Virus record (IMG/VR): IMGVR_UViG_2695420732_000023
Source of the DNA: a virus
Taxonomy: Duplodnaviria > Heunggongvirae > Uroviricota > Caudoviricetes
Reading direction: 5' to 3' (one strand)
Length of the DNA stretch: 39,472 nucleotides
The notes below the pieces were generated by a model. The model made no database searches. It was not told the DNA's origin and saw nothing but the letters and a program-made list of their open reading frames with translations. Made by a program: the position numbers and the translations under genes. Within the stretch, counting starts at the first letter, position 1. The number at the start of each line of letters is the position of its first letter. Below, in pieces: positions 3,155 through 4,995 of this stretch.

Positions 3155-3516
3155 TATGCTCCAGCCTCCGGTGCTTTTGGCATTACTGCCCAGTGAGTGA
3201 TATTGACGTTTTCAAGGTCCCCAACCTGAAATGTCCACTGCCATTCTCTGGTTTCTTTTTGTCCCCAGGTGTACCAGAGAGAACGCCAGCCAATCAGCCA
3301 GCATTCTCCATTAGCATCAAATAACAGAACACTTTCATTTGCTGGTGGCAGTTCAGCTGACACTGGTATTATTTTGTTTTCCAGTGCCGCACATTTAGCT
3401 TCAAGCGCGTCGAATTTACGTACCAGGTACTCAGCATTTGTTTCGTTCACTTTCAGATCTCGCGGTACACATTTCCCGCGAAGAAACCCTTCCATTTCGA
3501 AAACATTCATGCGCAT
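3154..3516 (-). CDS. hypothetical phage protein
   Basis: 120-aa ORF with GGAG 8 nt upstream of ATG; same strand and tight spacing with flanking early genes. Confidence 0.5.
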   Translation of the reverse strand: MRMNVFEMEGFLRGKCVPRDLKVNETNAEYLVRKFDALEAKCAALENKIIPVSAELPPANESVLLFDANGECWLIGWRSLWYTWGQKETREWQWTFQVGDLENVNITHWAVMPKAPEAGA

Positions 3517-4043
3517 TTGCGTAACTCCGATAAATCGTTAAAACGTTCCATAAACATCCCGTAGGCATGACCCGGTGCCAGTGGAATCACGTTGAACATC
3601 TCTGTTGCCGGGATGCCATCCAGTACAGGCCAGAAAGAGCCATCATCAAGCCCGAGATCACGGCGTTCGGTTGCCAGCATAATGAGATCGGCATATTTCA
3701 CTGGCGTGCTCATAACAGGAGGTAACCCGTATTTCTCACGGATTACTGCATCTATTTTTTCTTCCATCCGTTTATAGTCAGGAAGAAGGCGTTTCAGTGG
3801 TGCGGGGATGTCCTGGCAATACGCTTCTGTTGCATCATGCATTAACGCTTCAAAAGCAAATTCCTGCGGCACCAGCTGGCTGCAAAGCACCGCATGTTGG
3901 GCGACACTGTAGAAGTGAGAAAGATGACCGGCAAAGCGGCAGATATTTGAAAGGGAAACCGCGATATCGTTAATCACGATGTCGTCTTTATTTATCCTGT
4001 CATAATAAAAATGCTTCCCGGAAAAAGTTTTAATAAATGACAT
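3507..4043 (-). CDS. HD-domain phosphohydrolase (YfdR-like, putative 5'-deoxynucleotidase)
   Basis: contains H...HD motif context (SVAQHAVLCSQ ... LMHDATEAY) typical of HD superfamily; start set at ATG (MSFIKTF) preceded by GGAGAACAAA; resembles CPS-53 yfdR by recall. Confidence 0.65.
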   Translation of the reverse strand: MSFIKTFSGKHFYYDRINKDDIVINDIAVSLSNICRFAGHLSHFYSVAQHAVLCSQLVPQEFAFEALMHDATEAYCQDIPAPLKRLLPDYKRMEEKIDAVIREKYGLPPVMSTPVKYADLIMLATERRDLGLDDGSFWPVLDGIPATEMFNVIPLAPGHAYGMFMERFNDLSELRKCA

Positions 4044-4170
4044 TTTGTTCTCCACGTATATGCGCTGCACCGCGCTGAGTTTGGGTAAAAGGAAGCCCTC
4101 ACCATCCGGTGATTATTGAGTTAATTACGTTTCCATAAATGCCCCCGCAGGGGCATTTGCAGTAATGAAA

Positions 4171-4995
4171 TCAGGCGGTGAAAGTACCAATAAAGGTTTC
4201 TACTTTGCTGTCTTTGAATTTCTCAACAAGCAGATCACGAAATTCGTTAGCCATATCTTCCTGCACCGCTTCCAGCTGAATAATGCGCAGAACCAGTACA
4301 GGACGATCGCCAGTGATAATGCTGAGGCGTAATTTAAACGGACGTTCTTTCAGACCTTCAAACGGAACGCATTTAAATTCAAATGCCACTGGCATAATGT
4401 CTTTGGTCTTCGCTTCGACAGATTCCATCAGGGAGCGTTTGCCGCTGAAGTCATTATCTTCAAAATCAGCGGTCTGGTTTGCTTCAATCGTGATTTTACG
4501 GATTGCCGCAGCCGCTTTTGTTGCCTGAATGGCGTCACCATTAGCATCAAAGCCCACAAGGTAGTCGGCCCAGTCTTCAATCCATTCTGCCAGTGATTTC
4601 TGTGAGTTACGCTCGCCGTTAACAGACAACAGGGCAGAGAACGGTGCTGTCTTTTTCAGTTTGAGAGTGGCGGTGTTATCTGCGTGACCTGGTTCATCAA
4701 TAGTACCCAGGTTAAGCACACTGACGGCACGCATATTATCAGCATCGATAAAGCAGCGGGTGCCTTCATCTGCAAGATCTTTAGAATAACGGGTAAAGTC
4801 ATCGATGCTGGCAGTGGAAAGCGCACCACGGAAACGGAAGCGATTTAAATTAAATTTTTCCAGATCATGAATGCGGAAATTCTCAGGCAATGCCACAGCA
4901 TCGGCACCAATCTTACTGATAATTTCATTAACACCCTGAGCAGAAATAAGGGCATGGATTTGATTAATTGCGGTTGCGTCTAAGTTCTGAGACAT
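4171..4995 (-). CDS. DUF2303-family protein (YfdQ-like)
   Basis: 274-aa ORF; sequence and length resemble prophage CPS-53 YfdQ by recall; GAGGA RBS 7 nt upstream of ATG. Confidence 0.6.

Follow-up and report, generated by a model that had tools for sequence, protein, structure and literature searches.

Prophage genes yfdQ and yfdR, the conserved yfdP-yfdQ unit, and a possible role in blocking host replication initiation

The 39,472-nucleotide stretch of viral DNA analysed here (IMG/VR virus record IMGVR_UViG_2695420732_000023, class Caudoviricetes; the whole stretch is called "the window" below) carries two consecutive minus-strand genes, one for a DUF2303-type protein and one for an HD-superfamily protein. 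Their near-identity over the full length, together with their conserved synteny, identifies them with near-certainty as orthologues of yfdQ and yfdR of the cryptic prophage CPS-53 of Escherichia coli K-12, and the natural function that we favor for them, at roughly even odds, is the shut-off of initiation on the host chromosome. All 274 residues of YfdQ are identical to those of K-12 YfdQ (K-12 and E. coli O103 strain ML775 in fact share one protein accession), and YfdR matches its K-12 counterpart at 176 of 178 residues (98.9%), the differences being R16K and D142E; YfdP has a single difference from K-12, and YfdS and YfdT have two each. At the DNA level, the 2.4 kb around yfdQ-yfdR are 99.7% identical to E. 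coli K-12 MG1655 over 2343 bp, 100% identical to strain ML775 and 96.9% identical to Shigella phage SfV. The block is carried by 3035 of the 5426 complete E. coli genomes, and 49 phage records also contain it, among them those of SfV, SfIV and Stx2c phages. In K-12, CPS-53 is annotated with yfdP, yfdQ, yfdR, an unnamed "phage protein" gene (yfdS) and yfdT, and the RefSeq product name for yfdR is 5'-deoxynucleotidase. The finding is genuine but already known: these are named, widespread and partly characterised prophage genes, and the statement in the initial annotation that "the function is unknown" is outdated, since the same genes in K-12 have a published DnaA/initiation phenotype (PMC4776307).

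The initial annotation had described consecutive minus-strand genes for an HD-superfamily and a DUF2303 protein, each with a good ribosome-binding site, and the open reading frames (ORFs), the residues H50, H69-D70 and D119 in one product and the family match of the other all bear this out. In transcription order yfdQ precedes yfdR, with a 127-nt spacer in between; GAGGA stands 7 nt upstream of the yfdQ ATG and GGAG 7 nt upstream of the yfdR ATG. The longest yfdR frame begins further upstream, at a GTG, but the ATG at 4043 is the likelier start because of the GGAG preceding it and because K-12 and ML775 are both annotated from that position. YfdQ matches Pfam DUF2303 (PF10065) with E=4.3e-93 and 311.9 bits against a cut-off of 26.6, its residues 7-272 aligning to profile positions 2-269 of 269, so that it is a full-length member of the family; it also matches phrog_210 (E=5e-120). 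The PF10065 family comprises 1771 clusters at 50% identity, and among the 150 clusters listed nearly all are stand-alone proteins of about 250-300 aa. Three singleton E. coli proteins depart from this pattern: P0123 (250 aa) and P0136 (275 aa) join PF10065 to most or all of YfdR, and P0280 joins it to PF27127, the YfdP domain; all three are probably deletions or frameshift artefacts and not true fusions. A hairpin in the yfdQ-yfdR spacer was considered as an efficient intrinsic terminator and rejected: it has no U-tract, the terminator scan did not call it, and the spacer fold (4044-4175) is no more stable than shuffles (z=-1.45), so it is probably not one.

The two genes form part of a longer leftward string (Table 1), in which yfdT, yfdS, yfdR, yfdQ and yfdP are joined by more small minus-strand ORFs up to about position 6299, and in which the excisionase and integrase genes occupy the distal end. 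A CI-like repressor gene follows on the right, with Cro-like, CII-like and O-like initiator genes on the plus strand beyond it, and the remainder of the prophage holds a full set of lysis, HK97-type head and contractile-tail genes. The 15-bp palindrome TTGCG-N5-DGCAA has only three copies in the window, all of them flanking the repressor gene; we read the two copies upstream of the leftward genes as the left operator (OL) and the third as the right operator (OR), in which case the OL region, with the leftward promoter (PL), would drive the leftward operon. The "leftward early operon" of the initial annotation thus gains support, both from these palindromes and from the repressor and the Cro-, CII- and O-like genes to the right. 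A promoter scan found no minus-strand sigma-70 match for PL, and the putative promoter is placed from the operator palindromes alone. The CI-like repressor would prevent expression of yfdP-T in the lysogen. The setting, then, is a repressor-controlled leftward operon in an SfV/CPS-53-type temperate prophage at tRNA-Thr beside proA.

Table 1. Features of the leftward operon and its surroundings (window coordinates).
Feature	Position	Strand	Description
proA	1-1254		window begins inside proA
tRNA-Thr(CGT)	1369-1444		adjoins the integrase side
integrase	1459-2577/2622	-	distal end of the leftward gene string
excisionase	2499-2849	-	distal end of the leftward gene string
yfdT	2849-3154	-	101-aa protein
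yfdS	3154-3516	-	120-aa DUF551 protein; start overlaps the yfdR stop
yfdR	3507-4043	-	178-aa HD-domain phosphohydrolase; longest ORF 3507-4070, from GTG at 4070
hairpin in yfdQ-yfdR spacer	4137-4158	-	9 bp, G+C-rich, without U-tract
yfdQ	4171-4995	-	274-aa DUF2303/YfdQ-family protein, identical to E. coli K-12 YfdQ (WP_000081278.1)
yfdP	5061-5423	-	120 aa, directly upstream of yfdQ
two operator-like 15-bp palindromes (putative OL)	6507-6543		TTGCGAGATATGCAA and TTGCGGGGTATGCAA; upstream of the leftward genes
terminator-like hairpin	6578-6561		after the repressor gene
CI-like repressor	6598-7290	-	helix-turn-helix + S24 peptidase; phrog_4, phrog_6201; RefSeq: XRE family regulator
third palindrome copy (putative OR)	7311-7325		between the repressor and Cro-like genes
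O-like initiator	8542-9483	+	right of the repressor

Two further details of the operon are worth recording. An 81-aa ORF with its own ribosome-binding site (5861-6106, plus strand) is read in the direction opposite to the leftward operon, overlapping the minus-strand ORF 6024-6299 (phrog_3195) at its end; it matches phrog_3311 over its full length (E=1.2e-55) and is unannotated in the ML775 RefSeq record. In addition, the ORF list prolongs yfdP upstream into a 226-aa frame (5061-5741, minus strand), where the ML775 RefSeq record has instead a frameshifted hypothetical gene (5438-5748, minus strand), possibly a decayed gene in the interval from PL to yfdP.

What is known of the function of these genes comes largely from K-12. 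The minimal multicopy set that suppresses the over-initiation of hda-185 cells consists of yfdQ and yfdR together with yfdS or yfdT, whereas yfdP is dispensable, and in dnaAcos, seqA and wild-type cells, too, extra copies have an inhibitory effect on initiation (PMC4776307). [quoted passage not shown] Extracts with YfdQRST inhibit oriC replication in vitro, and the authors suggest that, in the lytic phage from which they descend, the genes had a part analogous to that of lambda P, citing SfV orf29-31 (PMC4776307). Later work refers to YfdR as a prophage-encoded factor that inhibits the interaction of DnaA with DnaB (PMC12122000, PMC5448010), and a 2018 preprint reports that production of YfdQ affects the release of another phage in K-12 derivatives.

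YfdR itself has the sequence of an enzyme. The HD motif H50...H69-D70...D119 is present, together with E73 and D78, and among 20 homologues (64-88% identity) H50, H69, D70, D78 and D119 show no variation and E73 shows almost none. This conserved H...HD...D set marks YfdR as a predicted metal-dependent phosphohydrolase of the HD superfamily, and the general remark of the initial annotation that HD enzymes hydrolyse nucleotides is correct. Its match to phrog_318, "deoxyribonucleoside 5' monophosphate phosphatase," is strong (E=2.8e-109), and the closest solved structure to the family profile is the HD-domain protein 2gz4 (the uncharacterised Atu1052; E=1.2e-17). The relationship to YfbR, the housekeeping 5'-deoxynucleotidase of E. 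coli (structures 2paq/2par/2pau; PF12917), is marginal at the sequence level: the Pfam scan of YfdR returned only two weak hits, PF12917 (YfbR-like) and PF13023 (HD_3), and YfdR stays below the cut-offs for YfbR-like proteins (24.3 vs. 25.9 bits for PF12917, and 19.9 vs. 122 for the equivalog NF003009 of NCBIfam). An hhalign comparison to YfbR gave E=2.7e-4 and a probability of 41% over 65 columns only, and the YfdR profile matched the YfbR structure 2paq at the motif (E=0.18). The two proteins nevertheless belong to the same HD fold class and share the motif HDxxE-x4-D-x-P-x-P-x-K (YfdR MHDATEAYCQDIPAPLK aligned to YfbR YHDASEVLTGDLPTPVK), and on visual inspection the R-[F/W] and His positions upstream of it match as well (R36-F37 and H50 in YfdR).

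These features raise the possibility that the role of YfdR is primarily enzymatic, as a nucleotide-pool enzyme of the phage that dephosphorylates deoxynucleoside monophosphates, and that DnaA binding is a side effect of overexpression. The invariant catalytic residues, the YfbR motif and the database names (5'-deoxynucleotidase in RefSeq, the phosphatase name in PHROG) all fit such a role, and so does the spread of YfdR-like HD proteins, which occur in 337 phage records from diverse hosts of many phyla (Bacillus, Caulobacter and Rhizobium among them), mostly without yfdQ, as would suit a host-independent enzyme. Even so, we consider it unlikely as the main role. Noguchi & Katayama (2016; PMC4776307) describe YfdR as having far lower affinity for nucleotides than YfbR has and say that its function "remains elusive"; deletion of yfdR gave no higher yield of cytidine monophosphate in an engineered strain (PMC10870394); and an enzyme activity alone would leave the need for yfdQ and for yfdS or yfdT in the K-12 phenotype unexplained.

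The initial annotation had raised a counter-defence or exclusion role, in which the HD protein would break down the nucleotides of defence signalling (cyclic oligonucleotides, cyclic nucleoside monophosphates or (p)ppGpp) or keep out superinfecting phage. The HD superfamily does include cyclic-nucleotide phosphodiesterases, and the genes occupy an early region of a temperate phage genome that is rich in accessory genes. The yfdQ homologue of Vibrio phage 24E35.2 has, three genes downstream, a gene (5712-6221) whose product contains a Tad2-like domain (Thoeris anti-defence 2; E=4.4e-22), which shows only that anti-defence genes can share this region. YfdR, however, contains no GYP tripeptide and a single H...HD...D set, unlike the HD-GYP type of cyclic-nucleotide phosphodiesterase; its Pfam hits are confined to the two weak ones given above, and its sole motif-level relative of known chemistry, YfbR, is a 5'-monoesterase. 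YfdP, YfdQ, YfdR, YfdS and YfdT had no PADLOC match at E<=0.01, a weak negative in that PADLOC covers defence systems and not anti-defence proteins, and the published phenotypes concern DnaA and replication rather than phage resistance (PMC4776307). Degradation of signalling nucleotides and exclusion both remain without support here, and we regard this explanation as very improbable.

The gene neighborhoods of YfdQ homologues changed our view of which genes belong together. We scanned one genome per species and confirmed 75 YfdQ loci, with a few species contributing more than one; in 73 of them the gene immediately upstream of YfdQ codes for a YfdP homologue, the remaining two loci being truncated. 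A YfdR homologue follows YfdQ in 57 of the 75 (seven of these with an inserted gene), yfdS and yfdT are rare, and the most distant loci (Photobacterium, Psychromonas and Endozoicomonadaceae, 38-45% identity) carry yfdP-yfdQ without yfdR. The same arrangement holds in seven distant phage loci whose YfdQ relatives are 37-52% identical (Xanthomonas phages CP2, Usme and MET23-P3, Vibrio phages VvAW1 and 24E35.2, Pseudomonas phage PG1 and E. coli phage ArgO145): YfdP is directly upstream in all seven and YfdR is found in none. (The scan of viral contigs for YfdQ context yielded near-identical E. coli loci only.) The YfdP of the window aligns by hhalign to ORF38 of Xanthomonas phage CP2 with E=1.6e-19, and YfdP homologues carry PF27127 in the precomputed Pfam listing; in two CP2-like phage loci (L158 and L160) the yfdQ homologue lies at 3068-3892 and 27837-28661, respectively. 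Across phage records, YfdQ occurs in 181, as against the 337 with YfdR-like HD proteins. The conserved unit is therefore yfdP-yfdQ and not yfdQ-yfdR, an observation that is new here: with YfdP near-constant and YfdR variable, the distributions of yfdQ and yfdR are largely independent and their adjacency is an enterobacterial arrangement. The "pair" of the initial annotation stands as a description of two consecutive genes in the window, but not as an evolutionary unit. A 2025 survey of lambdoid phages found a yfbR-like/yfdQ/yfdP cluster to be common in early left operons, the latter two genes being without a function so far (PMC12315714).

This pattern suggests that yfdQ may belong functionally with yfdP, in an independent two-protein module of phage DNA metabolism (an accessory to recombination, replication or single-stranded DNA), and that the succession of yfdQ and yfdR is gene order only. 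The neighbors in the distant phages are in keeping with this: Erf or RecT, exonucleases, single-stranded DNA-binding protein (SSB), a DnaQ-like exonuclease and a DUF1351 protein. Weak sensitivity of ΔyfdQ cells to methyl methanesulfonate (MMS) and H2O2, as reported in PMC4776307, points in the same direction, as does the oligomeric YfdQ structure described below. On the other side, the K-12 multicopy phenotype needs yfdQ and not yfdP, so that YfdQ can act in the absence of YfdP and alongside YfdR; stable binding of YfdQ to oriC DNA or DnaA was not seen in pull-downs; and phages with a full Rec module (ArgO145, CP2) keep yfdP-yfdQ, so that the module does not replace a single-strand annealing protein (SSAP) or an exonuclease. 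We hold such a module to be a tentative but serious possibility, and one that is compatible with the DnaA-block explanation. YfdQ as a new SSAP in place of a missing Rec module was a separate candidate, rejected in view of the Erf/RecT and exonuclease phages that also carry yfdP-yfdQ (cf. PMC12315714); YfdQ showed neither fold nor sequence similarity to the Rad52/Redβ/Erf, RecT or Sak4 families.

Structural information points to a large YfdQ assembly. The AlphaFold2 model of YfdQ (predicted local distance difference test score, pLDDT, 79) has an N-terminal helix, a flexible linker and an alpha/beta body, and that of YfdP (pLDDT 68) consists of one long helix and a three-stranded sheet; a fold search with both models, in a library to 2026-04-08 that did not include PDB entry 9o7m, returned no informative relative. 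Entry 9o7m holds 36 chains named "YfdQ Protein" and matches YfdQ over the full length of the sequence (E=2e-44). Its sequence, rebuilt from the HMMER alignment, traces to Xanthomonas CP2-like podophages and is 98.8% identical to a protein of phage MET23-P3; it is about 37-38% identical to the YfdQ of the window (tblastn) and is likewise preceded by a YfdP homologue. The CP2-like phages carry, in this order, yfdP-like, yfdQ-like, DUF1351, Erf, exonuclease and SSB genes, whereas in the window it is the HD protein that follows yfdQ. The capsid protein of MET23-P3 and the YfdP and DUF1351 homologues of CP2 have no match in 9o7m, which argues that the entry is an assembly of YfdQ, possibly with nucleic acid included; YfdQ as a virion component was rejected on the same grounds. 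We found no publication for 9o7m in a literature search. A somewhat bolder proposal, which we think rather unlikely as it stands, is that YfdP and YfdQ form an obligate module with folds that have no detectable relatives, conserved from lambdoid prophages of enterobacteria to phages of Vibrio, Pseudomonas and Xanthomonas and in every case placed among early genes of DNA metabolism, that YfdQ works as a large homo-oligomer (the 36 chains of 9o7m) in an undescribed host-takeover or replication/recombination role, and that YfdR is an enterobacterial add-on directed at DnaA.

The best explanation overall, to which we assign a probability of about 0.55, is that the two genes are yfdQ and yfdR of an SfV/CPS-53-type temperate phage, expressed from a repressor-controlled leftward promoter within yfdP-Q-R-S-T, and that their natural function is to shut off host initiation. 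YfdR would be a single-metal HD phosphohydrolase that occupies the DiaA/DnaB site (Phe46) on DnaA domain I. On induction or infection the operon would be derepressed, and YfdR, acting with YfdQ and with either YfdS or YfdT, would block assembly of the initiation complex and helicase loading at oriC, so that initiation on the host chromosome is off while the O-like initiator of the phage starts phage replication; YfdQ goes together with YfdP in a conserved module of its own and is likely to form large oligomers. The immunity region with its operator palindromes, the O-like initiator gene to the right and the xis-int genes at the left end provide a supporting context. With YfdQ identical and YfdR so nearly identical to the K-12 proteins, the K-12 results should transfer to the window, and the role of YfdR as an inhibitor at DnaA domain I should hold for the window protein as well; we infer this transfer, and with it the natural role in phage development and its benefit and timing.

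Several points weigh against this explanation. The initiation block was seen only on multicopy expression or overexpression, and deletion of yfdQRST gave no replication phenotype, the authors themselves conceding a possible overexpression artefact (PMC4776307). The YfdR-like HD proteins in phages of unrelated hosts imply that binding of E. coli DnaA is not the ancestral function of the family, and the loci that carry yfdQ and yfdP without yfdR (18 of the 75 genome loci and all of the distant phage loci) imply that the functional coupling of YfdQ and YfdR is not general.

It could also be that the genes are kept mainly for the benefit of the lysogen, low expression from the prophage slowing initiation and thereby conferring tolerance to oxidative, acid and alkylation stress. 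Sensitivity to H2O2 has been reported for ΔCPS-53, ΔyfdQ and ΔyfdS, and sensitivity to MMS for ΔyfdQ (Wang, 2010; Rooney, 2009; both as cited in PMC4776307), and the block is retained in more than half of the complete E. coli genomes, including the decayed CPS-53 remnant of K-12 with its near-identical DNA. Against this, the promoter is repressor-controlled, so that the genes should be silent in the lysogen; the phenotypes as reported are weak; and the presence of the same genes in functional phages, including the virulent-looking Xanthomonas and Vibrio podophages, argues for a function in the phage cycle. A benefit to the lysogen as the main reason for keeping the genes therefore strikes us as improbable, and host-initiation shut-off is the natural function that we continue to prefer.

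Some other cargo of the prophage deserves mention. A gene flanked by those for the Q antiterminator (13153-13533) and the holin encodes a 279-aa TIR-domain protein (13573-14412, minus strand), which has matches to PADLOC TIR-TM (PDLC03016, E=1.4e-57) and Pfam TIR_2 and looks like a candidate defence moron carried by the prophage. The window equals ML775 base for base over positions 1-13586, and an ungapped comparison loses register beyond that point, most likely through an indel or a small difference in the region of the TIR gene. A Bor/Iss-type serum-resistance lipoprotein gene (15982-16323, minus strand; Pfam Lambda_Bor, E=1e-30; "iss" in ML775) lies by the lysis cassette, and just past the tail-fibre genes there is a gene (36690-38639, minus strand) for a 649-aa, type IV restriction-like protein with GmrSD_N and GmrSD_C domains, annotated as a DUF262 protein in ML775.

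The novelty of the locus as such is small: the genes are named, they are present in over half of the complete E. coli genomes, and a DnaA-binding and initiation-block phenotype has been published. What remains of value is the role of yfdP-T in phage development, the biochemistry of YfdP and YfdQ, yfdP-yfdQ as a conserved unit and the solved high-order assembly of YfdQ. With that assembly solved and no publication found for it, a study of the yfdP-yfdQ module in an inducible SfV-type prophage would be timely.

The closest known systems are yfdP-yfdQ-yfdR-yfdS-yfdT of K-12 CPS-53 (KpLE1) and orf28-32 of SfV, which are the same genes in the same order as in the window. The difference lies in the surroundings: the window holds what looks like a complete prophage at thrW-proA, capsid, tail and lysis genes included, whereas in K-12 the block belongs to a decayed remnant at another chromosomal site, beside dsdC and torI. 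As binders of the host initiator that prevent initiation, lambda P, SirA of Bacillus subtilis and Dps resemble YfdR in what they do, though none has any sequence relationship to it. SirA and YfdR use the equivalent Phe of domain I (PMC4776307). Lambda P, in contrast, targets domain III of DnaA and is itself a helicase loader (PMC4776307), whereas YfdR is an HD enzyme requiring YfdQ plus YfdS or YfdT in vivo.

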